In this document: positions 884 to 16,379 of the stretch, one piece after another
Layout: every line of letters begins with the position of its first letter
Numbering within the stretch: the stretch's first letter is position 1
IMG/VR virus record: IMGVR_UViG_2602041863_000003
Location: 1-16,379 of that record
From: a virus
Lineage: Duplodnaviria > Heunggongvirae > Uroviricota > Caudoviricetes
Direction: 5' to 3' (one strand)
DNA length: 16,379 nucleotides
Notes under the pieces: generated by a model
Told to the model about the DNA's origin: nothing
Seen by the model: only the letters and a program-made list of their open reading frames with translations
Database searches by the model: none
Translations under genes and position numbers: made by a program

Positions 884-896
884 AGGTGCTTCCAAT

Positions 897-928
897 GAAA
901 ACCCGCTTCGGCGGGTTTTGTTTTTTCC
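897..928 (+). terminator. Intrinsic terminator after Doc-like gene
   Basis: aaaacccgcttcggcgggttttgttttttcc: hairpin plus T-run 14 nt after the stop codon. Confidence 0.6.
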
Positions 929-998
929 TGGCATTCTGGTTTACAATTCGCACGCCAGCCTGAACAACTGGCACCTGCTGCGCCAGCAGAGACAACCG

Positions 999-1271: not shown

Positions 1272-1272
1272 C

Positions 1273-2322
1273 GTGCGGGTATTACTTCGACCTGTTCCGG
1301 TACCGGAACTTGGGCTGGTGGTGCTAAAACCGGGCCGTGAATCCATGCAGGTATTTCATAACCCTCGAGTTCTGGTGGAGCCGGAACCGAAAAGCATGCA
1401 TGGTCTGCCGTCCGGAGTCGTTCCTGCTGTTCGCCAGCCGCTGGCGGAGGATAAATCATTACTGCCATTTTTCAGCGATGAGCGGGTGATTCGTGCTGCT
1501 GGTGGTGCTGGTGCATTGTCTGACTGGCTGTTACGCCACGTTAAATCCTGCCAGTGGCCTCATGGTGACTATCATCACAGTGAAACCGTTATTCACCGTT
1601 ATGGTACTGGCGCAATGGTGTTGTGCTGGTACTGCGACAACCAGCTGCGTGACCAGACTTCTGAATCACTCGGGCAGCTTGCTCACCAAAACCTGTCAGC
1701 ATGGATGATTGATGTCATCCGCCACGCAATGAATGGCACGCAGGAGCGGGAATTATCGCTGGCTGAATTATCCTGGTGGGCGGTCTGCAATCAGGTGGCG
1801 GACGCGCTACCAGAGGCAGCATTACGTCGTTCTCTGGGGTTACGTGCGGAAAAAATTCGCTCAGTATACCGCGAGAGCGACATCGTGCCGGGAGAGCAGA
1901 CCGCCACCAGCATGCTGAAGCAGCGCACAAAAAATCTTGCGCCGCTGCCTCACGCCCACCAGCAACAGAACCCACCACAGGAAAAGACGGTGGTCAGCAT
2001 TGCCGTTGATCCTGAGTCTCCGGAATCTTTCATGAAACGACCTAAACGTCGCCGCTGGGTTAACGAGAAATACACACGCTGGGTGAAGACACAGCCGTGT
2101 GCGTGTTGTGGTAAGCCAGCCGACGATCCCCATCACCTGATTGGTCATGGTCAGGGCGGAATGGGGACAAAATCTCACGATATTTTCACGCTACCGCTGT
2201 GTCGGGGGCATCACAACGAGCTTCATGCGGATCCGCTGGCGTTCGAAGAAAAGCATGGTTCTCAGGTTGATTTAATTTTTCGTTTTCTTGATCACGCCTT
2301 TGCAACTGGCGTGCTTGGGTAA
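1273..2322 (+). CDS. Phage nin-region protein with C-terminal Cys/His-rich HNH-like zinc-binding domain (NinG/YbcO-like)
   Basis: ORF 1201..2322; GGAGG at 1264-1268 then in-frame GTG at 1273 (spacing short, start uncertain; ATG at 1201 or 1345 possible); C-terminus PCACCGKPADDPHHLIGHGQGGMGTKSHD...PLCRGHHNELH; lies directly upstream of rusA as ybcO/ninG do. Confidence 0.55.
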   Translation: MRVLLRPVPVPELGLVVLKPGRESMQVFHNPRVLVEPEPKSMHGLPSGVVPAVRQPLAEDKSLLPFFSDERVIRAAGGAGALSDWLLRHVKSCQWPHGDYHHSETVIHRYGTGAMVLCWYCDNQLRDQTSESLGQLAHQNLSAWMIDVIRHAMNGTQERELSLAELSWWAVCNQVADALPEAALRRSLGLRAEKIRSVYRESDIVPGEQTATSMLKQRTKNLAPLPHAHQQQNPPQEKTVVSIAVDPESPESFMKRPKRRRWVNEKYTRWVKTQPCACCGKPADDPHHLIGHGQGGMGTKSHDIFTLPLCRGHHNELHADPLAFEEKHGSQVDLIFRFLDHAFATGVLG

Positions 2323-2334
2323 AAGAGGTGACTG

Positions 2335-2694
2335 ATGCTCATAGATTTGGTTTTACCTTACCCGCCGACGGTGAACACTTACTGGCGACGCCGTGGCAGC
2401 ACATATTTTATCTCGGAGGAGGGAAAGCGTTATCGCCGGGCTGTGGCGCTTATTGTTCGCCAGCAGCGGCTGAAATTAAACCTGTCCGGAAGGCTGGCGA
2501 TAAAGGTGATTGCAGAGCCACCGGATAAACGTCGTCGTGACCTGGACAATATCCTGAAAGCACCACTGGATGCACTGACACATGCGGGGTTGCTTATCGA
2601 CGACGAGCAGTTTGATGAAATTAATATTGTGCGCGGTCAGCTTGTTCCTGGTGGGCGGTTGGGGATAAAAATCACAGAACTGGAGTGCGCATGA
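2335..2694 (+). CDS. rusA: Crossover junction endodeoxyribonuclease RusA (Holliday junction resolvase)
   Basis: 119 aa; LPYPPTVNTYW...RRRDLDNILKAPLDALT...GGRLGIKITE resembles RusA as recalled; RBS AAGAGGTG upstream. Confidence 0.85.
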   Translation: MLIDLVLPYPPTVNTYWRRRGSTYFISEEGKRYRRAVALIVRQQRLKLNLSGRLAIKVIAEPPDKRRRDLDNILKAPLDALTHAGLLIDDEQFDEINIVRGQLVPGGRLGIKITELECA

Positions 2695-3380
2695 ATAACC
2701 AGTATTTACAGTTTGTTCGTGAGCAACTCATGATTGCCACCGCCGATTTGAGTGGATCAACAAAAGGGCAGCTTGAAGCCTGGCAGGAGAATGCCATGTT
2801 CGATACAGGGCGTTACAGGCGAAAAAAAATCCGGTACCGCGATGAAGTGACTGGAAAAATGATAACGCGGGATAATCCACCAATCCCGGGAAAGCAATCG
2901 CTGGCGAAAGGTTCATCAATTGCCCTGGTCAGTCCGGTTGAGTTTTCGACATCATCATGGCGACGCGCCGTTCTGTCTCTTGAAGAGCATCAGAAGGCGT
3001 GGGTGCTGTGGGTATACAGTGAAAATCCGAGTTGGGATTATCAGGTGGTCATTGCGAAATGGGCGTGGGATAAGTTTCAGGTGCATTTTGGCACCAGAAA
3101 AATTACAGGGAAAACGCTTGAGCGTCTGAAGAAATTAATCTGGCTGGCGGCGCAGGATGTCAGGGGGAGGATTACTGGGCGTGACGTCTACCAGCGACAG
3201 GAACTTGCCAGACTGTGTGGAGTTAAGCCTGACAACTGGAGCCATAATTATGCGAACTACTGGCGTGAGATGTGCGACATTTTTAAGAAACTCGATACAG
3301 AATCCTTGATTTGCACCGTGAAAATGAGATCGCAACAAAAAGCGACCTTTTCACGACGAGATATTGCAAAAGTCAATTAA
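2691..3380 (+). CDS. Late-gene antitermination protein Q (lambdoid Q family)
   Basis: ATG at 2691 overlaps rusA stop (ATGA); 229 aa; position after rusA and before a terminator hairpin is the canonical Q locus; similarity to Q is from recall. Confidence 0.75.
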   Translation: MNNQYLQFVREQLMIATADLSGSTKGQLEAWQENAMFDTGRYRRKKIRYRDEVTGKMITRDNPPIPGKQSLAKGSSIALVSPVEFSTSSWRRAVLSLEEHQKAWVLWVYSENPSWDYQVVIAKWAWDKFQVHFGTRKITGKTLERLKKLIWLAAQDVRGRITGRDVYQRQELARLCGVKPDNWSHNYANYWREMCDIFKKLDTESLICTVKMRSQQKATFSRRDIAKVN

Positions 3381-3426
3381 ATCGCATACATTTTATGTAA
3401 ATGTGATATTTTGCCGTATAGTGTGT

Positions 3427-3451
3427 AAACCCGCTTAAATGCGGGTTTTTT
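3427..3451 (+). terminator. Intrinsic terminator hairpin downstream of Q (candidate tR'-like)
   Basis: aaacccgcttaaatgcgggtttttt: perfect stem cccgc/gcggg, T6 tail; possible -10 TATAGT at 3417-3422 (weak). Confidence 0.55.
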
Positions 3452-3524
3452 GCTTAACTCTGTGGACCTTTTTATCTGTAGTTGTAAGATATGGATATTC
3501 TTACAATTTAGGTCGGTGAGCTTA

Positions 3525-4289
3525 ATGGAAGAACAGCACGGTAATTACTTTATAAAACGAATTCAGTTGATTGGAAGGGGTGCATTTGGCTTTGTTGAAC
3601 ACGTTAAGGTTTACAACCTCAACAAGGGTGAATGTGGGGATTATGCTAGAAAGGTTTTAGCCCCCGAAAAACCAGAGCTTTTGGCGCAAATAGAGCAGTT
3701 TAGAAGGCGTTTTAAAAGGGAGGTCGTGTATCAATCACATTGCGTACATAGCAATATTGTTCCTATTTATTTGTGCGATTTGTTTGCCGAGAATCCATGG
3801 TTCATTATGGATAAAGCAGAATGTGATCTTGAGCACGAAATAACGAACAACCTTCTTACAACAGATCAAAAAATTTCAATAGTGAAAATGGTATTAGATG
3901 GTGTAGCTCACATCCATGCGAAAGGCTATTTACACAGAGATATAAAACCATTTAATGTCTTGCGATTTAGCGACGGAACATACAAGGTGTCTGATTTTGG
4001 TCTGGTAAAAGATACAAATCCCGAAGGGGATACCACTAAATTGACCGAGATCGGTACCCGTATGGGAAGTACAAGATATATGGCTCCCGAGATTTTATAT
4101 AATGCCGAGTATTCAGTTAAGACTGATGTTTATGCGGTGGGGCGGTTAATTGAGGACTTAAATTTAGATGATAAAAAAATAAAGCCTATCATAGCGAAGT
4201 GTACCAGGATGGATAAAGATGATAGATATCAGACAATAGATGATGTGGCGTTTGATTTTGTGCATTCTTTTTTAAGGAGTGAGTCATGA
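3525..4289 (+). CDS. Eukaryotic-like (Hanks-type) Ser/Thr protein kinase, minimal catalytic domain only
   Basis: Gly-rich loop IGRGAFGFV, candidate beta3 Lys in YARKV, HRDIKPFN catalytic loop, DFG (VSDFGL), APE (YMAPE); ATG 3525 with GGTGAG upstream; ORF-track start 3450 is a TTG inside the terminator. Confidence 0.85.
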   Translation: MEEQHGNYFIKRIQLIGRGAFGFVEHVKVYNLNKGECGDYARKVLAPEKPELLAQIEQFRRRFKREVVYQSHCVHSNIVPIYLCDLFAENPWFIMDKAECDLEHEITNNLLTTDQKISIVKMVLDGVAHIHAKGYLHRDIKPFNVLRFSDGTYKVSDFGLVKDTNPEGDTTKLTEIGTRMGSTRYMAPEILYNAEYSVKTDVYAVGRLIEDLNLDDKKIKPIIAKCTRMDKDDRYQTIDDVAFDFVHSFLRSES

Positions 4290-5029
4290 TTCAGCTGATA
4301 GCGACTTCATCATTCTCGTATCCAAAAGAACCAGGTAGGGTCAACGAAGATTCATTGCTTCCTCCCAAAATTGTAGGGGATGGCATCTTATTTGCCGTAG
4401 CTGATGGTGTAGGTTCATACACTGGTGCCAGTCAGGCTTCATCAATGGCAATTGCTGAACTTTCAGCATTGACAAGCTTATCTTTTGACACAGTTCCGGA
4501 TGTATTTGATGAAGTTAAGCGAAAGGTTATGTCGTTAGCTGATGTTAATGATGAGTTCGATAAAGCTGCTACTACACTTACGTTTTGTTATGTTTGTGAT
4601 AGCGGAATTATTATTGGTCATATTGGTGATTGTCGTTTGTATTGCATTGGAGAGAAGAAAGCATACCAATTGACGAAGGACGATACCAGGCATCAGATGC
4701 TAATTGATCAGAATATTTTTAAACCCAGAGATTTGAAGGATAAACCGGGCAAAAATATCTTAACGACGGCTATAGCCTCAAATGTTGATATGGAATACGA
4801 CTGTGATTTTATCACATGGAAAGATTTACCTAGTATTAACGGGGTATATCATCTGTGTATCATGTCTGATGGGGTTCATAACGTTTGGGAAAAACGCCCC
4901 AGATTTACATCAAATACGATGAGTAATAGTCAGAAGTTTTCTAATGGCATTTTGCGTCGTATAGAGAGAGCCGGACCTGATGATGACTTTTCTTTAGTAA
5001 GTATAATGGTGCGTGTGACGTCAGATTAG
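4286..5029 (+). CDS. PP2C-family Ser/Thr protein phosphatase
   Basis: NEDS, AVADGVGS, IGDCR, IMSDGVHN and C-terminal DDD residues match PP2C metal-binding motifs; AAGGAG RBS 6 nt upstream; ATG overlaps kinase stop (ATGA). Confidence 0.8.
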   Translation: MIQLIATSSFSYPKEPGRVNEDSLLPPKIVGDGILFAVADGVGSYTGASQASSMAIAELSALTSLSFDTVPDVFDEVKRKVMSLADVNDEFDKAATTLTFCYVCDSGIIIGHIGDCRLYCIGEKKAYQLTKDDTRHQMLIDQNIFKPRDLKDKPGKNILTTAIASNVDMEYDCDFITWKDLPSINGVYHLCIMSDGVHNVWEKRPRFTSNTMSNSQKFSNGILRRIERAGPDDDFSLVSIMVRVTSD

Positions 5030-5101
5030 TTGTATAAACTCAGTAGGGAATGCTAATTTCACATACAACATAGTTAAAGAAAACTTAATTTTAATGTAAA
5101 A

Positions 5102-5126
5102 AGGCTGCCCTCAGGCGGTCTTTTTA
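5102..5126 (+). terminator. Terminator-like imperfect hairpin plus T-run after phosphatase gene
   Basis: aggctgccctcaggcggtcttttt; 7-bp stem with two G-U pairs, A-run upstream and T-run downstream. Confidence 0.4.
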
Positions 5127-5248
5127 TGCTCGAAAATTGATGCAGTACGTTAAACGCGCTGGTGGTTGCGAATACCGGTCTTTCAGCTTGCTGGCTTTTT
5201 AGACAAGAGTTATTGGTATGTCACGTTAACCAGAAAAGGGAAAAAGAC

Positions 5249-5446
5249 ATGCTAAAACAGCAGGATATGACCGAAACCGCCAGAGTGGTGTTTAATGAAT
5301 TAAGCGTCACCGAACCGGCGACCGTCGGGGAAATTGCGCAGAATACTTACCTTTCACGCGAACGCTGCCAGTTAATCCTGACCCAGCTTGTTATGGCGGG
5401 TCTGGCAGATTATCAGTTCGGTTGTTACAGACGCCTTCTGCAGTGA
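5249..5446 (+). CDS. Small winged-helix-like DNA-binding protein (hypothetical regulator)
   Basis: 65 aa; ATG 5249 with AAGGGA upstream; VGEIAQNTYLSRERCQLILTQLVMAGL looks like a wHTH recognition segment. Confidence 0.45.
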   Translation: MLKQQDMTETARVVFNELSVTEPATVGEIAQNTYLSRERCQLILTQLVMAGLADYQFGCYRRLLQ

Positions 5447-5596
5447 AGGCTTTTTAATTTGTGGTAATGGGCGGCTGGTGGGTGTTAGCGGCACCTGCCA
5501 GCCATCTGCTCATGCGTTGGGGTCACAAGCAAACCTCAGGCCCATCTGCTTTGCGCAAAAGCAGTATGAGCCTATCAGAGAAGTGCTTATTGATCT

Positions 5597-6646
5597 ATGA
5601 CTAATACTGTAAAAATATCCAGTTGTGAGTTAATCAACGCTGATTGCCTGAAATTTATCCAGACCTTACCGGAAAACTCTGTCGATCTGATAGTCACAGA
5701 CCCGCCATACTTTAAAGTGAAGCCCGAGGGCTGGGATAACCAGTGGGAGGGCGACGATGATTACCTGAAATGGCTGGACCAGTGTCTGGCGCAGTTCTGG
5801 CGGGTACTGAAGCCTGCCGGAAGTCTTTACCTGTTCTGTGGTCATCGCCTGGCATCTGACACCGAAATCATGATGCGTGAGCGCTTTAATGTGCTGAACC
5901 ACATTATCTGGGCGAAGCCGTCCGGACGCTGGAACGGGTGCAATAAGGAAAGTCTGCGGGCGTATTTTCCGGCAACAGAGCGCATTCTGTTTGCAGAACA
6001 TTATCAGGGACCGTATCGCCCGAAAGATGATGGCTATGTGGCACAGGGGCGCGAGCTAAAACAGCACGTCATGGCCCCGCTGATTTCTTACTTTCGTGAT
6101 GCGCGTAAATCACTGGGAATAACGTCAAAACAGATAGCGGAAGCCACCGGAAAGAAAAACATGGCTTCGCACTGGTTTGGTACCAGTCAGTGGCAGTTAC
6201 CGAACGAGGGTGATTACAACAAATTGCAGGCGTTGTTTGCGCGTGTTGCGGCAGAAAAACATCAGCGCGGGGAACTGGAAAAGCCACACCACCAGCTGGT
6301 CAGCACATACAGTGAGCTGAACCGGCAGTACACGGAACTGCTGAGTGAATATAAAAATTTGCGGCGGTATTTCGGTGTGACGGCGCAGGTTCCGTACACC
6401 GATGTCTGGACGCATAAACCGGTGCAGTACTATCCAGGAAAACATCCGTGCGAAAAACCGGCAGAAATGCTGCAGCAGATAATCAACGCGAGCAGTCGTC
6501 CGGGAGACCTGGTTGCAGATTTTTTTATGGGTTCAGGTTCAACGGTAAAAGCGGCGATGGCACTGGGGCGTTGTGCGATTGGTGTTGAGCTGGAGACAGG
6601 ACGTTTTGAACAGACAGTCAGGGAAGTTCAGGATTTAATCGTTTGA
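5597..6646 (+). CDS. DNA methyltransferase, beta-class (N6-adenine or N4-cytosine), no adjacent restriction gene
   Basis: VTDPPYF (motif IV) near N-terminus and DFFMGSGST (motif I, AdoMet binding) near C-terminus: beta-class motif order. Confidence 0.85.
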   Translation: MTNTVKISSCELINADCLKFIQTLPENSVDLIVTDPPYFKVKPEGWDNQWEGDDDYLKWLDQCLAQFWRVLKPAGSLYLFCGHRLASDTEIMMRERFNVLNHIIWAKPSGRWNGCNKESLRAYFPATERILFAEHYQGPYRPKDDGYVAQGRELKQHVMAPLISYFRDARKSLGITSKQIAEATGKKNMASHWFGTSQWQLPNEGDYNKLQALFARVAAEKHQRGELEKPHHQLVSTYSELNRQYTELLSEYKNLRRYFGVTAQVPYTDVWTHKPVQYYPGKHPCEKPAEMLQQIINASSRPGDLVADFFMGSGSTVKAAMALGRCAIGVELETGRFEQTVREVQDLIV

Positions 6647-6695
6647 AACGGATGAGATTGCAGAATTAATTACGCACCATTATTATTCTGCTCCC

Positions 6696-6771
6696 GGCCC
6701 TTTAGCTCAGTGGTGAGAGCGAGCGACTCATAATCGCCAGGTCGCTGGTTCAAATCCAGCAAGGGCCACCA
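6696..6771 (+). tRNA. tRNA-Ile2-like (anticodon CAU; Met/Ile-lysidine type)
   Basis: Cloverleaf traced by hand: acceptor ggccctt/aagggcc, anticodon loop cucauaa, T-loop ttcaaat, CCA encoded; close to E. coli ileX as recalled. Confidence 0.85.
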
Positions 6772-6772
6772 A

Positions 6773-6849
6773 CCGTCACCAGTTCATCAGGAAAGAGCGT
6801 CAACCCTTTAAGTTGAGTGTGCGAGGTTCGAGTCCTCGGTGGCGGGCCA
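6773..6849 (+). tRNA. Atypical tRNA-like gene, anticodon read as UUU, with C8 and C33
   Basis: Acceptor ccgtcac/gtggcgg (one G-U), D-arm with G18G19, anticodon stem tcaac/gttga, loop ccuuuaa, T-arm cgagg-ttcgagt-cctcg, CCA encoded; departs from near-universal U8 and U33. Confidence 0.45.
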
Positions 6850-6851
6850 GT

Positions 6852-6927
<76 letters not shown>

Positions 6928-6930
6928 TAT

Positions 6931-7005
<75 letters not shown>

Positions 7006-7282
7006 GCATTTGAAATAAGCCTTATTGTATTGCAGCACTGGCGTATTTTTTATTACGTGGGAGCAGGTTGTTTTAAGAGACATTCTGTTCTCTGGCTATG
7101 ATTTGAGGCCAGGTTAGCCTCAGTGCTGATTTTTTTTACGACAGCAGAATGGTGCATTATCGGTGGAGATTTTGTATTTCCTGGCAGGGTCGGTAATGCA
7201 TCATTCTGATGTTGTAAGCATCGCTCAGAATAACGTTGAGATTAATCGCGTACTAAGCAAAACTTGGAAATACATCCTTAAC

Positions 7283-7305
7283 CGCCGCACCAGGCGGTTT
7301 TTTTT
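7283..7305 (+). terminator. Intrinsic terminator (ccgcc-gcacca-ggcgg + T8)
   Basis: Perfect 5-bp GC stem followed by eight T residues. Confidence 0.6.
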
Positions 7306-7429
7306 ATTCATTTTTTTCATGGCTCGCTACGGCGGGCCTTTTTCATATCCTCGCCACACCCGGCGCATATCACATCAAATAACGCCGCGCAAAAGGCATC
7401 TGCGGGCGCCTTTGACGGGGTGTTTTTAC

Positions 7430-7451
7430 GGGCCGCTGGTGGCCCTTTTTT
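7430..7451 (+). terminator. Terminator-like hairpin directly upstream of the lysis cassette RBS
   Basis: gggcc-gctggt-ggccc followed by T6; ends 7 nt before AGGAG RBS of the 7471 gene. Confidence 0.5.
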
Positions 7452-7470
7452 ATTTACAGGAGAAAAACGT

Positions 7471-7860
7471 ATGTCTGAACCCTTATCTGGTTCCGGCACG
7501 GCTGCGGCGCTCGGTGGGGCGACGGTATTCGGGCTGTTTACCGGAACGGATTTCGGGATTGTGTTTGGTGCGTTCGCCGGGGCGTTATTTGTGGCAACGA
7601 TGCCGCAGGCGCTTTCAATCTGGCGTGTGGTGGCGCATTTTTTGGTGTCGTTTATCGTCGGCGTGCTGGGGGCGCGCGTGCTGTCAGCCTGGATTGCATC
7701 AAAAACAGGGTATGACGGTACATCGGCAGATGCGCTGTGTGCGGTGCTGGTATCGGTGGTGTCGGTGAAGATTCTGTCGTTCATCCACCAGCAGGATATT
7801 GCATCGCTGGTGTCCGGTGTGTTCTCCCGTCTGCGGGGTGGAGGCGGTAATGTTAAGTAA
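7471..7860 (+). CDS. Membrane protein, putative holin (lysis cassette gene 1)
   Basis: 129 aa, AGGAG RBS 8 nt upstream; Gly/Ala-rich hydrophobic segments consistent with 3 TM helices; first gene of block ending in endolysin. Confidence 0.55.
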   Translation: MSEPLSGSGTAAALGGATVFGLFTGTDFGIVFGAFAGALFVATMPQALSIWRVVAHFLVSFIVGVLGARVLSAWIASKTGYDGTSADALCAVLVSVVSVKILSFIHQQDIASLVSGVFSRLRGGGGNVK

Positions 7861-8125
7861 CCTTCCCGGATTACTGAATGTGGTGTTAAGCACGGTTATC
7901 GTGCTGACGCTCTTTTTTTATCGTCGTGGTGATTCCAGACATAAACCGCTGATGTCGTGGCTGGCCTGGCTGCTGATGCTGCTGTATGCCTTTGCGCCAC
8001 TTTGTTATCTGTGTGGTCGCTTTCCACCCGGTAACTGGCTGGTCGTCCTGATTAACCTGGTGTTCTGCGTGCTGGTGATACGAGCACGCGGGAACGTATC
8101 AAAAATCCTTTCATTACGGAGGTGA
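7850..8125 (+). CDS. Small membrane protein, putative holin/antiholin-type lysis protein (lysis cassette gene 2)
   Basis: ATG 7850 with GGAGG 5 nt upstream, overlaps previous stop; 91 aa with 2-3 hydrophobic helices and basic C-terminus. Confidence 0.5.
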   Translation: MLSNLPGLLNVVLSTVIVLTLFFYRRGDSRHKPLMSWLAWLLMLLYAFAPLCYLCGRFPPGNWLVVLINLVFCVLVIRARGNVSKILSLRR

Positions 8126-8127
8126 GT

Positions 8128-8505
8128 ATGCCCGGTAAATTCAGATTCAGTCGTCGAAGTGAGAAAAATCTGGAGGGCGTCAAACCACAGCTGGTTGCTG
8201 TTGTTCGCCGTGCGCTGGAGCTGACGGAGGTTGACTTCGGTATTACGGAAGGCCTGCGCAGTAAGTATCGCCAGAAGCAGCTGGTCGCGGAAGGGAAAAG
8301 CCAGACCATGAACAGCCGCCACCTGACCGGTGATGCGGTGGATGTTGTGGCCTACATTGGTAGCCAGGTGTCATGGGACTGGCCTCTGTACGAGAAAATC
8401 GCGCAGGCATTTAAGCAGGCTGCCGCAGAGCTGGGAACTGCCATCGAATGGGGCGGGGACTGGAAAACACTGAAAGACGGGCCTCACTTTCAGTTGAAGC
8501 GCTAA
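8128..8505 (+). CDS. Endolysin, peptidase M15 family (L-alanyl-D-glutamate peptidase-like)
   Basis: SRHLTGDAVDV (SxHxxGxAxD zinc-binding motif) and DGPHFQ (DxxH); GGAGG RBS; 125 aa. Confidence 0.8.
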   Translation: MPGKFRFSRRSEKNLEGVKPQLVAVVRRALELTEVDFGITEGLRSKYRQKQLVAEGKSQTMNSRHLTGDAVDVVAYIGSQVSWDWPLYEKIAQAFKQAAAELGTAIEWGGDWKTLKDGPHFQLKR

Positions 8506-8519
8506 TAACCAGGTGGTTT

Positions 8520-8702
8520 ATGAGCCGAAAACACTGGACACACAGAATGCCGCGAACGGCGGCGAAATGGGCACTGGTAGCGATACTGGTGCCTTTTTTC
8601 CTGGTGGGATGCGTTAGCCTGGATAAGGTGCGCCAGCTTTTCGATACGGCCTCGCAGGTCTGCGAAATTGTCGAAAGTGCCAGGCAGTGTATGCAGAACT
8701 GA
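8520..8702 (+). CDS. Small lipoprotein, possible lysis accessory/spanin-like protein
   Basis: Basic N-terminus, hydrophobic stretch WALVAILVPFFLVG and lipobox LVGC; AGGTGG RBS; lies where Rz/Rz1 sit in lambda; not proline-rich like typical o-spanins. Confidence 0.4.
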   Translation: MSRKHWTHRMPRTAAKWALVAILVPFFLVGCVSLDKVRQLFDTASQVCEIVESARQCMQN

Positions 8703-8789
8703 TCGCCTGTAAGAGCAGAATATTGTTGAATCTAAATTTACTTTGAACAGTGGCCCGGATGGAAAGGGCATCTAAATAGGAGCAGAAAA

Positions 8790-8999
8790 ATGTTAACTGT
8801 AAAAGTCATGTCTCAAAATGGTGGGGAAGAGCTCCATTGCGGGCGTAGCATTGGCTATCATCCAGAGCAGCGGAGTATTGCCGTATCGGGAAAGGATGGG
8901 AAAGTCATTCTGAAAGATGGAGATATTGCTTATGTAATGAACCAAAACGCTCAAATAATATCTGTTTATCGGCCCAATAATAGTCAGAAAAACATTTGA
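8790..8999 (+). CDS. Hypothetical small protein (69 aa)
   Basis: AGGAG RBS 7 nt upstream of ATG; AT-rich by eye; no motif recognised. Confidence 0.5.
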   Translation: MLTVKVMSQNGGEELHCGRSIGYHPEQRSIAVSGKDGKVILKDGDIAYVMNQNAQIISVYRPNNSQKNI

Positions 9000-9122
9000 A
9001 TTTCGCAAGTCCAAAGTTCAGTGGTGATCGTTATCAACTAATTGAAATAACAAGCTTATGTTTGTGTAATTGGTGATATAGCATGTTAATGCTGAATATC
9101 AGCGTCAACATGGAGTTATACA

Positions 9123-9338
9123 ATGGTTTTTAAACACTATTACGTGAACAAAAATGCTCAGAGCAATGGCGATCATGAGGTGCATGCTGAGGAATGTTCA
9201 TATCTTCCTTCTGTAGCTAACCGCGATTACCTTGGTTACTATAGTGATTGTTCTTCGGCGGTAACAGAGGCAAAGGCCAAAGGATATTCCCGGGTGAATG
9301 GTTGCTATTGGTGTGCCAATAAGTGCCACACGTCTTAA
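9123..9338 (+). CDS. Hypothetical small Cys-rich protein (71 aa)
   Basis: GGAG RBS; five Cys plus His (C..C, CxxCxxxC near C-terminus) suggest a metal-binding knuckle; terminator follows. Confidence 0.5.
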   Translation: MVFKHYYVNKNAQSNGDHEVHAEECSYLPSVANRDYLGYYSDCSSAVTEAKAKGYSRVNGCYWCANKCHTS

Positions 9339-9357
9339 TCAATTGTCAATAAACCAT

Positions 9358-9381
9358 AAAGGCCGCTCTGCGGCCTTTTTC
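9358..9381 (+). terminator. Intrinsic terminator (ggccgc-tct-gcggcc + T5)
   Basis: Perfect 6-bp GC stem, 3-nt loop, T-run, 20 nt after stop of the 9123 gene. Confidence 0.65.
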
Positions 9382-9649
9382 ATGTTAAAAAAGATTGCGG
9401 CATTACAGCAGCCCTTCACACTGAGTGGCTGCGATAATGTGAGAAATAAAAAACCGGCAGGGGAAATCCATTGAAGATTTGCCGGTGGCAAAAAGATGGC
9501 CATGCTTTCAACCTTAGTCGCAGGGTTACGGAGTGCAACTACGAATGCTGCCGGTATATGGCTGAATGGCGTTTCAATGATGTACGTCATCTTATCTGTA
9601 AATGTTAATGATAAAAGCTCTCATTTGTGCGGGTCCTTCCGGTGGGGTG

Positions 9650-9680
9650 GCCTGCCACGGGGCGGGAGCGTCGCGGAAAA
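9650..9680 (+). other. Candidate cos site (cosN-like), with cosB-like region extending to the terminase small-subunit gene
   Basis: ccacggggcgggagcgtcgcgg resembles lambda cosN (acggggcggcgacctcgcgg) as recalled; sits about 170 bp upstream of the Nu1-like gene; downstream has ttcgtcat like the lambda cosB region. Confidence 0.5.
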
Positions 9681-9845
9681 AGGCTAGTTTTTGAAATTTT
9701 ATTCGTCATCACCATCACTGTAATTGATTGATATTACAGTGATTTTATTTTTATGGTGTCGATTCTGATTGTTTTTTGTTCATCACTAACACCGTTTGCC
9801 TAAAGTTGTTCGCAAGATGCATGTTTAAAACATTCTGGAGCGGGT

Positions 9846-10340
9846 ATGGATCGAGAGTTAAAAAATCTGACGCTGAATATCAGTCAACTGGCGGCATTGT
9901 CAGGTGTACATCGCCAGACTGCTGCGGCAAGGCTGCAAAATCTACCCGTTGCAGGGGGGCATGAAAGCAACCTCAAGCTTTATCGGGTGGTTGATATTGT
10001 GTCGGCATTTCTGGCATTACCACCGCCGGTTGCAGAAGGCGAAATGGACGCGCATGAGCGCAAAGCCTGGTATCAGTCTGAACGTGAGCGTCTTAAGTTC
10101 GAACAGGAAACGGCGCAACTCATTCCGGCCAGTGATGTCAGACGGGAGTTTGCCATCTGGGCAAAAGCGGTCGTGCAGGTGCTGGAGACATTACCGGATA
10201 TTCTTGAACGTGACTGCGGTCTGCAGCCTGCCGCTGTGAGCCGTGTTCAGTCCATTATTGATGATCTGCGCGATCAGATAGCCCTGCGGGTGACCGAAGC
10301 AGGTGCGGATGATGAGGAGGAATTACAGCAGGAGGAGTAA
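9846..10340 (+). CDS. Terminase small subunit (Nu1-like DNA packaging protein)
   Basis: N-terminal wHTH-like LTLNISQLAALSGVHRQTAAARL, acidic C-terminus; GGAG RBS; stop overlaps large-subunit ATG. Confidence 0.75.
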   Translation: MDRELKNLTLNISQLAALSGVHRQTAAARLQNLPVAGGHESNLKLYRVVDIVSAFLALPPPVAEGEMDAHERKAWYQSERERLKFEQETAQLIPASDVRREFAIWAKAVVQVLETLPDILERDCGLQPAAVSRVQSIIDDLRDQIALRVTEAGADDEEELQQEE

Positions 10341-12442
10341 TGCTGAATCAGGAAACCGCAAAGGCAGCACGAACCGATTCAGGTTATATCCTTCGCGCAC
10401 CGAGACGAATGCAGGTTGCTGATGCCGTTGCTCAATATATGCGGGTGCCCATGGGGGCCGGGAACTCAGTCCCGTGGGATCCGCTGGTGGCACCGTATGT
10501 TATTGAGCCGATGAACTGCCTGGCCTCGCGTGAATACGACGCAGTGATATTTGTTGGCCCGGCACGAACCGGCAAGACTATCGGCCTGATTGACGGCTGG
10601 GTGATTTACAACGTGATTTGCGATCCTGCGGATATGCTGATCATTCAGATGACGGAGGAAAAAGCCCGCGAACACTCCAAAAAACGACTTGCCAGAACGT
10701 TTCGCGTCAGCCCGGAAGTGGTCAGTCGCCTGAGTCCGAACAAAAATGACAACAACGTTTATGACAGAACATTCCTTGCTGGTAACTACCTGAAAATCGG
10801 CTGGCCGTCAGTCAATATCATGTCCTCATCAGATTATAAATGCGTCGCGCTGACGGATTATGACCGTTTTCCGGAAGATATTGATGGCGAGGGGGATGCT
10901 TTCTCTCTTGCCTCAAAACGTACCACAACATTTATGTCCAGTGGTATGACGCTGGTGGAGAGTTCCCCCGGCAGGGATGTGAAGGATGTGAAATGGCGAC
11001 GGACTTCACCGCATGAGGCTCCACCAACCACGGGGATCCTGTCGCTCTATAACCGTGGTGATCGCCGTCGCTGGTACTGGCCCTGTCCACACTGTGGTGA
11101 GTATTTTCAGCCCTGCGGCGATGTGGTTGCTGATTTCCGTGATATTGCCGATCCCGTGCTGGCAAGTGAGGCGGCTTATATTCAGTGTCCTTCCTGTTCA
11201 GGACGGATTATGCCTGAACAAAAACGTGAGCTGAACGGACGTGGGGTCTGGTTGCGGGATGGTGAATCCATCAATGCGGATGGCAGTCGTTATGGTGATC
11301 CCCGACGCTCACGTATTGCGTCATTCTGGATGGAGGGTCCGGCAGCTGCTTACCAGACACTCTCGCAACTCGTTTACAAACTGCTTACTGCAGAACAGGA
11401 ATACGAGACAACCGGAAGTGAAGAAACACTCAAGACGGTTATCAATACCGACTGGGGATTACCTTATCTTCCCCGTGCCAGCATGGAGCAACGAAAAAGT
11501 GAACTGCTTGAGCAGCGGGCAGAGCCAGTTCTTTCCCGCAGTGTGCCGGATGGCGTTAATTTCCTTGTGGCGACAGTGGATGTGCAGGCGGGACGTCATC
11601 GCCGTTTTGTGGTTCAGGTAACGGGCTATGGCAGCCGTGGCGAACGCTGGATTATTGATCGTTACAACATCACGCAGTCATTGCGCGGTGACAGCGACGG
11701 GGAGAGCCAGCGAATTGATCCGGCCAGCTACCCGGAAGACTGGGATGTCCTGCTGACGGATGTTTTTCATAAAAGCTGGCCGCTGGCCTCCGATCCTTCT
11801 CAACAAATGCGACTGATGGCAATGGCGGTGGACTCCGGCGGTGAAGACGGGGTCACTGATAATGCCTATAAATTCTGGCGTCGTTGCCGTCGTGATGGCC
11901 TTGGTAAACGTATTTACCTGTTTAAGGGTGACAGCATCCGGCGCGCAAAACTGATCAGCCGTACATTCCCTGATAACACCGGACGAACGGGCCGCCGGGC
12001 GCAGGCCGCAGGTGATGTGCCGCTCTGGCTTCTTCAGACGGATGCCCTGAAAGACCGGGTGAATAACGCGTTATGGCGTGACTCGCCAGGTCCCGGCTAT
12101 GTGCATTTCCCTGACTGGCTGGGGAGCTGGTTTTACGACGAACTGACGTATGAAGAGCGGAGCAGTGACGGGAAATGGAGTAAGCCGGGTCGCGGTGCCA
12201 ACGAAGCTTTTGACCTGATGGTGTATGCCGAGGCTCTGGTCATTCTGCATGGATACGAAAAGATCCGCTGGCCGGATGCACCGGAGTGGGCGAGCCGGGA
12301 AACCTGGCTGGAGTGTGTCCCGGACAGTACCGAACCGTCACCCTCACCGGAACCGGTATCCACGCCTGTTAAAAAACAAAAACGGAAGAAAACAGTAACT
12401 GACGATGTTAACCCCTGGCTGACTTCCGGAGGATGGTTATGA
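10340..12442 (+). CDS. Terminase large subunit (lambda gpA-like)
   Basis: 700 aa; Walker A VGPARTGKT; CPHCGEYF zinc-finger-like motif as in lambda gpA (CPHCGE). Confidence 0.9.
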   Translation: MLNQETAKAARTDSGYILRAPRRMQVADAVAQYMRVPMGAGNSVPWDPLVAPYVIEPMNCLASREYDAVIFVGPARTGKTIGLIDGWVIYNVICDPADMLIIQMTEEKAREHSKKRLARTFRVSPEVVSRLSPNKNDNNVYDRTFLAGNYLKIGWPSVNIMSSSDYKCVALTDYDRFPEDIDGEGDAFSLASKRTTTFMSSGMTLVESSPGRDVKDVKWRRTSPHEAPPTTGILSLYNRGDRRRWYWPCPHCGEYFQPCGDVVADFRDIADPVLASEAAYIQCPSCSGRIMPEQKRELNGRGVWLRDGESINADGSRYGDPRRSRIASFWMEGPAAAYQTLSQLVYKLLTAEQEYETTGSEETLKTVINTDWGLPYLPRASMEQRKSELLEQRAEPVLSRSVPDGVNFLVATVDVQAGRHRRFVVQVTGYGSRGERWIIDRYNITQSLRGDSDGESQRIDPASYPEDWDVLLTDVFHKSWPLASDPSQQMRLMAMAVDSGGEDGVTDNAYKFWRRCRRDGLGKRIYLFKGDSIRRAKLISRTFPDNTGRTGRRAQAAGDVPLWLLQTDALKDRVNNALWRDSPGPGYVHFPDWLGSWFYDELTYEERSSDGKWSKPGRGANEAFDLMVYAEALVILHGYEKIRWPDAPEWASRETWLECVPDSTEPSPSPEPVSTPVKKQKRKKTVTDDVNPWLTSGGWL

Positions 12443-12633
12443 ACCAGAATGATATCGAAGCCATGATTCAGCGTTATACGGAAGCTGAAATGGCGGTGCT
12501 GGACGGAAAATCCGTCACCTTTAATGGTCAGCAGATGACCATGGAAAACTTATCTGAGATCCGGCAGGGACGGCAGGAGTGGGAGCGCCGCCTTGCGGCT
12601 CTGATTACACGACGACGGGGGCATCCCGGGTAG
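12439..12633 (+). CDS. Head-tail joining protein W-like (gpW family)
   Basis: About 64 aa ending ...ITRRRGHPG, like the lambda gpW C-terminus (...RRRGPAGFYV) as recalled; start overlaps terminase stop (ATG at 12433 or 12439). Confidence 0.65.
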   Translation: MNQNDIEAMIQRYTEAEMAVLDGKSVTFNGQQMTMENLSEIRQGRQEWERRLAALITRRRGHPG

Positions 12634-12688
12634 CGGTGTTTATGATGCAGATATCAGTGGTGCATCGACATTAATCCTCCACTTCAAT

Positions 12689-13063
12689 ATGAATGCGGGG
12701 AGTTGCCCTGCTGTACAGTTCCGCGTGAATTACAGGAACGGCGGTATTTTTTATCGTTCAGCGCGTGATGGTTATGGCTTTGAAGCTAACTGGTCAGAGT
12801 TTTACACCACAACACGCAAACCCTCTGCGGGGGATGTTGGTGCATATACGCAGGCAGAATGTAACTCAAGGTTTATTACAGGTATTCGCCTTGGCGGTCT
12901 GTCATCTGTTCAGACATGGAAAGGCCCCGGCTGGTCTGACAGGTCAGGTTATGTCGTTACGGGTTCAGTTAACGGAAACCGTGATGAATTAATTGATACA
13001 ACTCAGGCAAGGCCAATTCAGTATTGCATTAATGGGACGTGGTATAACGCGGGGAGTATTTAA
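12689..13063 (+). pseudogene. Side tail fibre C-terminal fragment (5'-truncated remnant fused downstream of W)
   Basis: Lies immediately upstream of a tail-fibre assembly gene; the frame stays open upstream of ATG 12689 to at least 12623 with no start, indicating a truncated gene at a deletion junction. Confidence 0.55.
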
Positions 13064-13065
13064 CG

Positions 13066-13599
13066 ATGATGCACTTAAAAAACATTACTGCTGGCAACCC
13101 TAAAACAAAAGAGCAATACCAGCTAACAAAGCAATTTAACATCAAATGGCTTTATTCAGATGATGGAAAAAACTGGTATGAGGAACAAAAGAATTTCCAG
13201 CCAGACACTTTGAAAATGGTCTATGACCATAACGGCGTTATTATTTGTATTGAAAAGGATGTTTCAGCAATTAATCCAGAGGGTGCAAGCGTCGTTGAAT
13301 TACCTGATATTACAGCAAATCGCCGGGCTGATATTTCGGGGAAATGGATGTTCAAAGATGGCGTAGTGATAAAGCGAACTTATACCGAGGAAGAGCAGAG
13401 GCAACAAGCGGAAAATGAAAAGCAAAGCCTGTTGCAACTTGTCAGGGATAAAACCCAGCTATGGGACTCACAGCTACGGCTGGGCATCATTTCCGACGAG
13501 AATAAACAAAAATTAACCGAGTGGATGCTCTATGCGCAGAAAGTCGAATCTACAGACACCTCCAGCCTGCCAGTAACATTTCCAGAACAACCAGCATGA
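13066..13599 (+). CDS. tfa: Tail fibre assembly protein (Tfa)
   Basis: 177 aa; N-terminus MMHLKNITAGNP; C-terminal LTEWMLYAQKVESTDTSSLPVTFPEQPA typical of lambdoid/e14 Tfa. Confidence 0.8.
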   Translation: MMHLKNITAGNPKTKEQYQLTKQFNIKWLYSDDGKNWYEEQKNFQPDTLKMVYDHNGVIICIEKDVSAINPEGASVVELPDITANRRADISGKWMFKDGVVIKRTYTEEEQRQQAENEKQSLLQLVRDKTQLWDSQLRLGIISDENKQKLTEWMLYAQKVESTDTSSLPVTFPEQPA

Positions 13600-13627
13600 A
13601 ACAAGGCCCGATAGCGGGCCTTAATTT

Positions 13628-13981
13628 TTATTCAGGCTTTTGTGGCCATTCAGGATTTGCCGTATCCACACGGCTGACCAGAACACTGTAGCGTCCCCAT
13701 GCTTCCAGTCGTGTGCGTTCCTCGTCTGTTGCCATATTCAGCCTGACAGCGCGTTCCAGCGGCCGAATAACGCTTTCTGCTTCGGAAAGTAACGCGGCCT
13801 TTTGTGATTCGGCCTGTTGTTGCTGTTCGTCAGCCGTATAAATCCGTTTAACGACTGCGTCGTCCTTAAACATCCACTTTCCGGAATCATCAGCGCGGCG
13901 GTTGGCTGGTGAACTTTCGATAGTGCGAGTATTGAATGATTTCCAGCCGTTATCGATTTTATATAACTGCCGTGGAATTAT
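13628..13981 (-). pseudogene. Inverted tail fibre assembly gene fragment (tfa', 5'-truncated)
   Basis: Minus-strand translation ...[31 protein letters not shown]...[25 protein letters not shown] parallels the plus-strand Tfa ([31 protein letters not shown]); frame extends upstream of Met 13873 to an in-frame stop at 13982-13984 with no start. Confidence 0.7.
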
Positions 13982-14391
13982 TCAACACACAGGAAAAACG
14001 GAATAAGCTGAGAAAAAAGCGTGCTTTCCCAATCTGGGGCAAATCACGTCTGAATGACACCTGAAAATTTCCCGTCCGTTAAGTGTCCGCCCCGAGAGAA
14101 GTGGGAACCATAACACCCTGTCGGGACGCAGAAAGAAACAATACAACTTGCAGGGATATTTTCTTGATAAAGCATGAATGAGCAAGTGATTGTTTGTGCT
14201 GGCGGGGATTTTAGGAATTTTTCTTCATTTTAATGTATAGAATTCAAACAGCAAGCGAGAGAAAGTCTTTCTGCAAAACTAAAAGAGATTTCAATAAAAT
14301 CAAGCAGTTAAAAACACGGGAAAACGGTATAAAAAAGCATCTCAAAATCCTGTTTTTTCTTTTATGTACAATGTGTTATTGCATTTTTTAA

Positions 14392-14517
14392 AATCTATCA
14401 GTGTGGTACATGGATATCGATACCACCGCCAATTATAAGCTGGGCGGTGCACAGCAACACGATAGCGTACGCCTCGATCCGTGGGTGTTTATGTTCTCAG
14501 CAGGATATCGTTTTTAA
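14392..14517 (+). pseudogene. ompW: ompW 3'-terminal fragment (likely attR-side remnant of prophage insertion)
   Basis: Frame translates NLSVWYMDIDTTANYKLGGAQQHDSVRLDPWVFMFSAGYRF*, matching the OmpW C-terminus as recalled; in-frame stop at 14389-14391 just upstream; no upstream ompW sequence. Confidence 0.75.
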
Positions 14518-14530
14518 TTCCGCACAAAAA

Positions 14531-14553
14531 CGACCCCGTAATATACGGGGTCA
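14531..14553. terminator. Bidirectional terminator between ompW remnant and yciE
   Basis: gaccccgta-atat-acggggtc hairpin flanked by A-run and T-containing sequence, between convergent genes. Confidence 0.55.
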
Positions 14554-14576
14554 ATAAGGACATTGTATAAAGGGTA

Positions 14577-15083
14577 TTATTTCTTCGCTTCTACGCCATC
14601 AGTTTCAGAGCGAATTAAAAATTTCTCAGTTGTTTGCGGAATATTCTGAATCAGCCAGTCGGCCATTTGCTTTTCCTCATTTAAAATCGCTTCGATGGTT
14701 GGAATTGAAGCTGTATCACCGGCATTTTTTGCTGCTGCTAATAGTGAGGTGTAACAGGCGATTTCAAATTGCTCGAAGACATATCCGCTAATAGAGCCTT
14801 TGACTATTTCATCAGAAGGGAATATACCACCGATTGACTGCCCAAGCGCAGCCATTTTACTCATGGAATCTTTAATGACTGAACGTGAAATGTCATTACG
14901 ATCAAGAATAGTTTCCAGTTGAACAATCTGGTTTTTGGTTTCACTAAGATGTTGTTCAATACGAGCGCGTAGTTCAGGATAATTATCTATACGGCTGGCC
15001 ATGGATTCAAGCATAGATTCGGCTTGCTTTTCCATTGCGTGGGCGTCACGTAACCAGTCATGATAATGTTCAATACGATTCAT
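14577..15083 (-). CDS. yciE: YciE (DUF892 ferritin-like stress protein)
   Basis: 168-aa translation MNRIEHYHDWLRDAHAMEKQAE... matches E. coli YciE as recalled; AGAGGA RBS. Confidence 0.9.
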   Translation of the reverse strand: MNRIEHYHDWLRDAHAMEKQAESMLESMASRIDNYPELRARIEQHLSETKNQIVQLETILDRNDISRSVIKDSMSKMAALGQSIGGIFPSDEIVKGSISGYVFEQFEIACYTSLLAAAKNAGDTASIPTIEAILNEEKQMADWLIQNIPQTTEKFLIRSETDGVEAKK

Positions 15084-15128
15084 GAAAATATCCTCTTTAT
15101 AAAATGACTAAAAGTTAAAATTCATATT

Positions 15129-15629
15129 TCAGGCTTTATTTTCGGCTTTCTTATTTACGTTATTAATGGCCAGATCAGTCAGTTTGATGTCGGTGGCCTT
15201 TTCTTCTTCCAGGGTTTCTTTCAGAAGCTTCGCTGCTTTACGGTAACCTAATTGTTCAGCCAGCGTCGCTAATGTCCCGTAACTGGCAATCTCATAATGC
15301 TCGACTTTCTGTGCTGCGGCAATCAGTGCGGCATCACGCACTTCGTTTTTCTCGGTACTTTCGATGACCTCATTAGCTTCTTCAATAAGACCTTCCATTG
15401 CCACACATTTCATGCGCTTAATTTTCAGGTTCGATTCGGACTCCACAACTTGATCAATACGTTCAATCTGTCCATGAGTTTCCTCGAGGTGCGCATGAAA
15501 AGCCTGACTTAATTTTTCATTTGATGTTGCTCTTGCGAGTTTTGCCAGTGCCCGGGTTAATTGTTTTTCTGCGCTGTAGGTATCTGAAAGCAGGTGAATA
15601 AATACATCTTCAATGGTCTTCATATTCAT
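15129..15629 (-). CDS. yciF: YciF (DUF892 ferritin-like stress protein)
   Basis: Translation from MNMKTIEDVFIHLLSDTYSAEKQ... matches E. coli YciF as recalled; start chosen at internal ATG with GGAG RBS rather than ORF-track 15677. Confidence 0.9.
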   Translation of the reverse strand: MNMKTIEDVFIHLLSDTYSAEKQLTRALAKLARATSNEKLSQAFHAHLEETHGQIERIDQVVESESNLKIKRMKCVAMEGLIEEANEVIESTEKNEVRDAALIAAAQKVEHYEIASYGTLATLAEQLGYRKAAKLLKETLEEEKATDIKLTDLAINNVNKKAENKA

Positions 15630-15714
15630 ATTTTTCTCCAGTGAAATCACTGCGAGCCATACGGCCCGCAGATGCAATTATCTTTATCAGCTGATATTAA
15701 TAATTAACGGTGAA

Positions 15715-15894
15715 TCAGGATTTGCCTGATTTATTACCACCGCTTTGTTGACCGCCTTTTTTACCCGCTTCAGATGCGCGTTGCGGATCATTTTTAAAAT
15801 TACCGCCGCTATGCTGACCGCCTTTACGGCCTGCGTCGGATGCCTTCTCACGGTCTTCGGCGAAATTTCCTGAACCACCACGATGTTCGGCCAT
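15715..15894 (-). CDS. yciG: YciG (KGG-repeat stress-induced protein)
   Basis: MAEHRGGSGNFAEDREKASDAGRKGGQHSGGNFKNDPQRASEAGKKGGQQSGGNKSGKS; KGG repeats; start at internal ATG 15894. Confidence 0.85.
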   Translation of the reverse strand: MAEHRGGSGNFAEDREKASDAGRKGGQHSGGNFKNDPQRASEAGKKGGQQSGGNKSGKS

Positions 15895-16243
15895 GTTATT
15901 TCTCCCGTTGCGTTGCATTGTTTCATTAATATGTGTGTTGTGTGTCGACACTCATTAAAATTAGTCGCTAATGAGAATTAGTCAAATTAAGCGCAGCGAG
16001 AAGATAGAGGGAAAATATATTTTGAGGAACATTCTGGATATATTAACAATTACCTGAGGAATAAGTGACTTAGAGAAAATTATTGATTTTACTGGTGTTA
16101 TGTTGCGGGATTAATTTGTTTGATTATATTACTGTTGGGCGGAAAAATGACGTAAGTTGACGTTCGACCGGGGTAAGCGAAACGGTAAAAAGATAAATAT
16201 TAAATGAATTTAGGATTTTTCCGGCTTCATTAAAGAAAGTTAA

Positions 16244-16270
16244 AATGCCGCCAGCGGAACTGGCGGCTGT
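16244..16270 (-). terminator. Terminator downstream of trpA (trp operon terminator-like)
   Basis: Minus-strand hairpin gccgccag-ttcc-gctggcggc followed by attttt right after the trpA stop. Confidence 0.55.
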
Positions 16271-16274
16271 GGGA

Positions 16275-16379
16275 TTAACTGCGCGTCGCCGCTTTCATCG
16301 GTTGTACAAAAACTTTCAGTGCCGCCAGCATTTTCTCTGGCTCATTAATATGTTGCTCGATGATTTTAACAATGGCCGA
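16275..16379 (-). CDS. trpA: Tryptophan synthase alpha subunit, 3' end (partial, runs off window)
   Basis: Reverse-complement translation ...[34 protein letters not shown] matches the TrpA C-terminus as recalled. Confidence 0.85.

Follow-up and report, generated by a model that had tools for sequence, protein, structure and literature searches.

Gene content and decay of the prophage

The window, i.e., the whole stretch of 16,379 nucleotides that was analyzed, hosts phage genes assigned by PHROG profiles on its left and, beyond a short fragment of ompW, the host gene yciE and its neighbors on its right (Table 1). In its left part, a gene for a Doc (death-on-curing) toxin was recognized at 389-883 and neighboring ORFs (8047-8730 in locus L001), preceded by a small ORF. 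With hokD in the early region, the defective prophage thus holds several addiction-type modules. Just downstream of antiterminator Q follow two overlapping genes, one for a Ser/Thr protein kinase (3450-4289) and one for a PP2C-family phosphatase (4286-5029). This pair occupies a moron-like position and, by analogy, is reminiscent of phage-exclusion kinases. A phage tRNA cluster (6696-7005) follows downstream of a DNA methyltransferase gene; ARAGORN assigned four tRNAs to it (CAT-anticodon Met/Ile2, Lys-TTT, Lys-TTT, and Gly-TCC), whereas only three are recognized by Rfam and in the RefSeq annotation of the relatives; the one called at 6773-6849 is doubtful.

Table 1. Prophage genes, attachment-site elements, and host features at the right end of the prophage (window coordinates)
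Feature	Position	Strand	Basis
Endolysin and holin	7799-8505		PHROG
Terminase small subunit	9846-10340		PHROG
Terminase large subunit	10340-12442		PHROG
Truncated head-tail adaptor	12433-12633		PHROG
Tail-fiber C-terminal fragment, 124 aa	12689-13063		PHROG
Tail fiber assembly, last intact phage gene before the junction	13066-13599	+	PHROG 136, E 6e-75; annotated in NZ_CP024232.1
Truncated, inverted tail fiber assembly pseudogene	13628-13909	-	PHROG 136 positions 94-177; annotated without N-terminus
Candidate secondary att, ~70 bp with homology to the ykgJ-ecpE intergenic region of K-12	13896-13965		Roughly 95% identity
P arm of attP	14267-14397	+	PPompW_132418 and P-EibA similar from CTGCAAAAC up to the core
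Candidate arm-type Int site TCTGCAAAAC, P arm	14270-14279	+	Sole exact copy in the window
Putative IHF site, consensus match AATCAAGCAGTTA (WATCAANNNNTTR)	14298-14310	+	Perfect match
In-frame TAA ending the ompW frame on the phage side	14389-14391	+	Translation
attR core, 29 bp common to attL, attR, and attB	14398-14426	+	Three-way and five-way alignments
Orphan ompW 3' stub, nt 520-639	14398-14517	+	Nucleotide and protein match, Pfam
Inverted repeat GTGGTA (14403-14408)/TACCAC (14421-14426) around 12 bp	14403-14426		Perfect over 6 bp
Native ompW-yciE hairpin, staying with the stub	14531-14553		Terminator-like site; fold -16 kcal/mol, z -3.3
yciE, first intact host gene rightward	14577-15083	-	DUF892; annotated yciE

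Collinearity with the window reached at most 73% in any of 5,426 complete E. coli genomes, none covering ≥80% of it in one place. The closest complete genome is that of ETEC O6:H16 2014EL-1346-6 (NZ_CP024232.1), with 100% identity to positions 12631-16379 and 99.99% to positions 1-7773. A second relative, the ETEC isolate L1_E925 (NZ_LR883050.1), is 99.95% identical over 1-8243 and 99.5% over 12631-16379.

The terminase genes are followed by an adaptor gene running straight into the C-terminal part of a tail-fiber gene, with its TAG stop codon (12631-12633) created at the deletion junction. Genes for portal, protease/scaffold, capsid, tail tube, tape-measure, and J are all missing from the window, and the endolysin ORF spans only positions 38-166 of the 292-position profile. 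The deletions of the relatives differ: 2014EL-1346-6 has the holin fused to the tail tip, L1_E925 the endolysin fused to the tail fiber. Within the region of window positions 7774-12631 (compare 15620-19032 in L001 and 22243 in L009), these three near-identical ETEC prophages carry different internal deletions. The variants of the window and of L1_E925 share the right deletion junction (12631, in the tail-fiber gene) with left ends at 12630 and 8243, respectively, and 2014EL-1346-6 keeps the whole fiber gene, its deletion reaching from 7773 into the tail-tip gene. The common endpoint at 12631 could go back to deletions nested in one another, to a hot spot of recombination, or to an IS since lost.

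Judged by its gene content, the element is a decaying prophage which would not be able to form virions on its own. It appears very unlikely that the element is a temperate phage still complete and inducible: the window or its relatives contain int, xis, the two att sites, a repressor/Cro region, Q, holin, endolysin, and terminase, but the adaptor leads straight into the 124-aa fiber fragment, portal, capsid, tail tube, tape-measure, and J are absent, and the endolysin covers its profile only in part. Furthermore, the inferred size of ~22-26 kb compares with ~44 kb for the GenBank records of PPompW, a published family of ompW-integrating prophages. The element may still be able to excise, with int, xis, and both att sites looking intact in the sequences of the relatives.

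Between the phage genes and the junction, the intact (+) and the truncated (-) tail fiber assembly genes face each other (13066-13909), separated by a hairpin at 13603-13622. The truncated copy is probably the remnant of an invertible tail-fiber host-range segment; an invertase gene is not present. Overlapping its end, the stretch homologous to the ykgJ-ecpE intergenic region of K-12 resembles the “attB-in-PP_2” of PPompW and may, going by this resemblance, serve as a landing site for another phage. PPompW prophages carry ykgJ/ecpE-derived att sequences, the published sequence having 96 bp (PMC8112680). A CDT-I prophage that strain MS20654 carries near zinT ends with the same module.

The small ORFs at 13982-14185 (-), 13936-14064, 14044-14175 (-), and 14233-14391 gave no PHROG or Pfam match. 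The first of them, a 67-aa minus-strand ORF, begins the interval of the original prediction at 13982; it is without a family match, and this start has no special meaning. The four ORFs, lying between the truncated tail fiber assembly gene and attR, were treated as non-coding. A small RNA at the prophage end was not detected either at the Rfam gathering threshold over the whole window or at E ≤ 1 on 13600-14650, the output of both scans consisting of tRNAs and two sub-threshold chance matches only.

Both junctions of the prophage with ompW

According to the original prediction, the frame ending at 14517 encodes the C-terminus of OmpW behind an upstream in-frame stop, with phage-type sequence to the left, yciE to the right, and no upstream ompW in the window, so that the phage/host junction was placed at 14390-14410 and integration in the ompW 3' end was proposed. 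All of this was borne out. Translation of 14380-14517 reads CIF, a stop codon (the TAA at 14389-14391), and NLSVWYMDIDTTANYKLGGAQQHDSVRLDPWVFMFSAGYRF, followed by the final stop of the open frame 14392-14517. Residues 172-212 of K-12 OmpW are matched by the frame 14392-14514 with 40 of 41 identical positions (E 8e-30), and Pfam OmpW positions 155-195 of 195 by the stub frame with 55.5 bits (cut-off 24). On the nucleotide level, 14398-14517 is identical to K-12 ompW nt 520-639, i.e., codons 174-212 and the stop, at 120 out of 120 positions. Alignment to an uninterrupted ompW-yciE region, as had been suggested, set the breakpoint at 14397/14398. From the stub, the identity with K-12 runs rightward through the ompW/yciE hairpin into yciE, yciF, and yciG, and the gene order corresponds to that of K-12 (native hairpin, yciE, yciF, yciG, trpA); the stub is native and continuous with yciE. 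Sensitive blastn and tblastn searches with the whole ompW gene and protein found no further ompW sequence in the window. Equivalents of the stub in the relatives are annotated as OmpW-family pseudogenes without N-terminus.

The opposite junction attL as well as int and xis are located ~10 kb left of the window and are described here from the near-identical relatives. In NZ_CP024232.1 and NZ_LR883050.1 alike, the attL end consists of an intact 212-aa ompW, followed by int and then xis. The integrase has 376 aa in both relatives, and the complete ompW lies 45 bp past the int stop. Outside the rebuilt ompW, both carry the host genes yciC, yciB, yciA, and tonB in K-12 order. Leftward through the prophage, a Cro/CI-type regulator, a LexA-family repressor-like protein, dicB, an exonuclease, the excisionase, and the integrase are encoded in both. 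The original prediction had presumed an intact ompW rebuilt at the other junction and had suggested looking there for a matching repeat and an integrase; rebuilt gene, core, int, and xis were all found in the two closest genomes. We infer that the genome of the window carries the same attL as the relatives, and its prophage would have ~26.3 kb if the left part is the same.

Three-way and five-way alignments showed attL, attR, and attB to be identical only over the 29 bp TCAGTGTGGTACATGGATATCGATACCAC, corresponding to 14398-14426. At attL, host sequence lies to the left and phage sequence to the right of this core, at attR phage sequence to the left and host sequence to the right. Divergence on opposite sides of the 29-bp identity is the pattern predicted by a reciprocal site-specific exchange, and, as read from the sequences, strand exchange must have occurred within 14398-14426. 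The att sites of PPompW_132418 have 28 of the 29 core bases in common (14399-14426). This 28-bp core occurs once in the window; L1_E925 (L009) contains exactly two core copies, 21,958 bp apart, and in 2014EL-1346-6 the copies are 24,892 bp apart. Beyond the core, the phage-borne ompW end at attL differs from the native one at 29 of 91 positions.

These findings bear on two other ways of reading the stub. A non-site-specific truncation of ompW by deletion, IS rearrangement, or homologous recombination between prophages, with phage DNA merely abutting the remnant, would be in line with the clear internal deletions that differ among the three relatives, and inter-prophage recombination and inversions at ompW and ydfJ have been reported (PMC8112680). 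However, the breakpoint agrees to the base with the core at which an integrase family specific for this site recombines, the adjoining P arm is conserved at the same position in >500 genomes, and the reciprocal junction with the same 29-bp core exists in the relatives, which makes such a truncation extremely improbable. The stub might also be read as an ompW-like att copy brought in by the phage, or as the junction in the middle of two tandem prophages, with the host boundary elsewhere, but hardly any weight can be given to this. A phage-borne ompW 3' copy (“attB-in-PP_3”) with ~81% identity to ompW is known (PMC8112680), and in fragments such as P0006 and P0013 a phage-type ompW end is joined to sequence other than ompW. 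The stub, however, is identical to K-12 ompW at 120/120 positions and continues unbroken into the native hairpin, yciE, yciF, yciG, and trpA, whereas the phage-borne copy at attL differs at 29/91 post-core positions. Window positions 14267-14517 are almost certainly the attR junction of a lambdoid prophage that is defective and belongs to the PPompW family of ompW integrators.

Under this site-specific reading, a lambda-type tyrosine integrase would recombine attP with a 28-29-bp site in ompW codons 174-183, which encode the highly conserved peptide SVWYMDIDTT. The attP would bring along a diverged copy of ompW codons 184-212 with the stop codon and a hairpin with a T-run, and integration would in this way rebuild a full-length ompW at attL beside int and xis. 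The displaced native 3' end would be left behind at attR, as a promoterless 120-nt stub beside yciE. A full-length ompW at attL and a stub at attR are what follows from an attP carrying its own ompW 3' end.

Architecture of the attachment site and relation to known systems

The integrase of the relatives contains an Arm-DNA-binding domain (PF09003, 78.3 bits) and a Phage_integrase domain (PF00589, 60.9 bits). It shares 97.9% aa identity at 100% coverage with PPompW intE (PPompW_14040, PPompW_EH1992). Integrases of PPompW were defined as >90% identical over >90% of the length (PMC8112680), and that of the closest genomes lies within these bounds, measured at the amino-acid level. Identity amounts to ~50% toward a group of lambda-like phages and to 36-38% toward the Int proteins of lambda and HK022. 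In the alignment with lambda Int, the TGQR, KTG, FHExR, LLGH, and Y motifs with the catalytic R, K, H, R, H, and Y are kept. An annotated xis lies beside int in the relatives.

For analysis of the attP, this was reconstructed from the phage sides of attR and attL. Exact copies of TCTGCAAAAC are located at -128, +125, +136, and +149 from the core start, so the repeated motif is present on both attP arms. Three tandem copies are packed into the 45 bp that separate the stop codons of the rebuilt ompW and of int, and the four copies are the only exact ones in ~36 kb (the 16.4-kb window and the 20-kb locus L003). By analogy with lambda, TCTGCAAAAC may be the arm-type site bound by Int. The sequence CTGCAAAAC is invariant in the three aligned P arms (window, PPompW_132418, and P-EibA), and their similarity starts exactly there. 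The P arm was matched in 565 E. coli genomes, and among the matches listed most begin at ~14267. An IHF consensus occurs only three times on both strands of the window; the match at 14298-14310 is conserved in all three P arms and suggests, on the level of sequence, IHF binding at this position. Within the core, GTGGTA and TACCAC, separated by 12 bp, may by analogy represent core-type Int sites bracketing the overlap, with the exchange taking place in the 12 bp between them; a 6-bp inverted repeat is weak evidence for such sites.

Prophages of the PPompW type (Nakamura et al. 2021, PLoS Pathog) are integrated in ompW, are typically defective, and have attL/R of 121 bp (PMC8112680). Our fine map of the att region, comprising the 28-29-bp core, 1 + 3 copies of TCTGCAAAAC, and the IHF consensus, goes somewhat past the “121-bp att” description found in the literature. 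The PPompW of STEC/EPEC (GenBank LC567818-LC567841) use the same target, the ompW 3' end, with an att of ~121 bp up to the ompW stop, and show the same 28-bp core and the same three CTGCAAAAC repeats beside int. The P arm is 85.7% identical over 160 bp (eight PPompW records). They are likewise lambda-like and usually defective, with a ykgJ/ecpE-derived sequence near the right end. In contrast to these STEC/EPEC elements, the prophage of the window belongs to an ETEC O6:H16 lineage and differs in its cargo, i.e., Ser/Thr kinase and PP2C phosphatase, Doc, HokD, and the tRNA cluster, as well as in the phage-borne OmpW loop (SYKSNGTPVKDA in the relatives of the window versus KYKSGVTTVKDS in PPompW). 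Toward their right end, STEC/EPEC PPompW typically carry an exchangeable locus of T3SS effectors (nleG and others) as well as attB-in-PP_1 of 21 bp, neither being strictly defining. Allowing up to three mismatches, attB-in-PP_1 (GTCATGCAGTTAAAGTGGCGG) had no match in the window, and no effector gene is situated between the tail fiber assembly genes and attR.

The prophage P-EibA (E. coli ECOR-9, AF151091.1) has the same P arm and core at its right end (82.7% over 161 bp), but carries eibA/eaaA cargo before attR. Att sequences derived from ompW, yecE, and ykgJ/ecpE have been described inside prophages (PMC8112680). The ompW gene is among the most occupied integration hot spots (Bobay et al. 2013, citing Creuzburg et al. 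2011; PMC3603311) and is a named integration site in many STEC genome papers. The junction is hence an ordinary one, that of a known family at a known site.

Lambda resembles the system in its integrase, a tyrosine recombinase that has an arm-binding domain at the N-terminus and shares the conserved catalytic residues, in an xis overlapping int, in an attP core flanked by arms with repeated arm-type motifs and an IHF consensus, and in the prophage order attL-int-xis...tail fiber-attR. In contrast, the two Int proteins have only 36-38% identity, the arm sites differ in sequence, and the target is here a coding sequence rather than the intergenic gal-bio region. One P-arm copy was found here compared with two in lambda, and the P' arm-type sites are ~125-158 bp away from the core, since 91 bp of substitute ompW coding sequence lie in between.

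A parallel to the rebuilt gene end is given by e14 and phage 21 in icd, which also insert in the 3' end of a protein gene and supply a diverged substitute end. There, icd ORF length and function are kept, and a duplicated orphan 3' fragment remains at the other junction. The ompW system likewise preserves the ORF length, its phage-borne 3' end again giving 212 aa. Gene and integrase specificity are different, and icd encodes a cytoplasmic enzyme, whereas the changes in ompW cluster between the last two strands of an outer-membrane protein, in a segment that should, going by topology, be surface-exposed. Integration replacing a 3' end has been described in general terms (PMC3603311).

The rebuilt OmpW and occupancy of ompW

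The rebuilt OmpW of 212 aa is identical to the K-12 protein at 204 residues. All changes of the encoded protein fall into codons 185-196, with eight aa replacements converting NYKLGGAQQHDS into SYKSNGTPVKDA, while codons 197-212 for the conserved C-terminal strand VRLDPWVFMFSAGYRF show seven synonymous and no non-synonymous changes. This clustering is significant (Fisher's exact p = 1.6e-4). The rebuilt gene is followed by a hairpin with a T-run (-15.4 kcal/mol, z -5.5) overlapping the int stop codon; the consensus terminator scan missed it, though folding supports the hairpin.

The protein aligns over its entire length with 2F1T and 2MHL, two solved structures of OmpW. Both termini of outer-membrane proteins of this topology are periplasmic, and the link from the penultimate to the last strand should lie outside the cell, as loop L4. 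The residues changed by the phage end lie in the segment joining the last two strands and should, by this analogy, belong to a surface loop. OmpW is an eight-stranded barrel and the receptor of colicin S4 (PMC2649078), and it was recently reported as the receptor of the E. coli T-even phage RB68 (bioRxiv 10.64898/2026.04.02.716166).

Across Enterobacteriaceae (loci L010-L089), OmpW segment 183-197 is hypervariable, with at least four sequence classes, and one class is five residues longer. The segment is bordered by WYMDIDT and RLDPWVFMFSAGYRF, both of which hardly vary. Its variability fits a prophage-independent selection acting on a surface-exposed receptor loop. With the flanks being almost invariant, the att core lies within coding sequence that is highly conserved, in keeping with a broad host range. 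A native OmpW with SYKSNGTPVKDA or KYKSGVTTVKDS was not found among the best 80 species-level ompW loci; the phage loops come nearest to the longer “KYKSNGAVLPAGRYSDN” class, which occurs in E. albertii and Citrobacter amalonaticus. With the 41-aa C-terminus as a protein query, short OmpW fragments only were returned, which showed the diversity of stubs but gave no lead to where the loop came from.

The loop alleles of ompW-integrating phages might be taken as lysogenic-conversion modules that re-type the receptor and protect against OmpW-dependent colicins and phages, with the final beta-strand kept under purifying selection as part of that reading; we regard this idea as improbable. As an alternative to a selected loop swap, the diverged end might be a historical by-product, dating from a different host in which the phage acquired its att region. 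The nature of this “repair” of ompW, i.e., a loop swap, is not obviously described in the literature searched.

Regarding the frequency of such integrations, 3,433 of the 5,426 complete E. coli genomes contain an uninterrupted ompW-yciE region, and 1,729 show ompW abutted by int-proximal attL sequence. The share of the 5,426 genomes in which ompW is occupied is about a quarter to a third. In terms of P-arm classes, 565 genomes carry the one of the window and 524 the O157/O145 class; these two queried classes (~1,060 genomes) fall short of the 1,729 with int beside ompW. The surplus is likely to be made up of more P-arm classes or prophages with deleted right ends.

Beyond E. coli, two Kluyvera loci (L054, Kluyvera georgiana; L057, a Kluyvera MAG) host integrase homologues of ~69% aa identity together with three CTGCAAAAC repeats directly downstream of ompW. 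Loci of Citrobacter, Kluyvera, and Raoultella (L019, L045, L047, L050, and L084) have two to three CTGCAAAAC repeats after ompW, and no integrase was detected within their 2.5-kb flanks; such repeats lacking an integrase may be traces of earlier integration events. Annotation also lists orphan C-terminal stubs of OmpW for Salmonella, Citrobacter, Kluyvera, and E. marmotae.

The value of these results lies mainly in annotation: the right prophage boundary is fixed to the base (14397/14398), the orphan “OmpW family, partial” pseudogene is explained by the attR stub, and the element is placed in the published PPompW family, in an ETEC O6:H16-type rather than an STEC/EPEC background. In addition, the fine map of the att region could aid automated prophage delimitation. 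The loop swap itself would matter if the chimeric OmpW alters the sensitivity of the lysogen to colicins or phages, and otherwise not.
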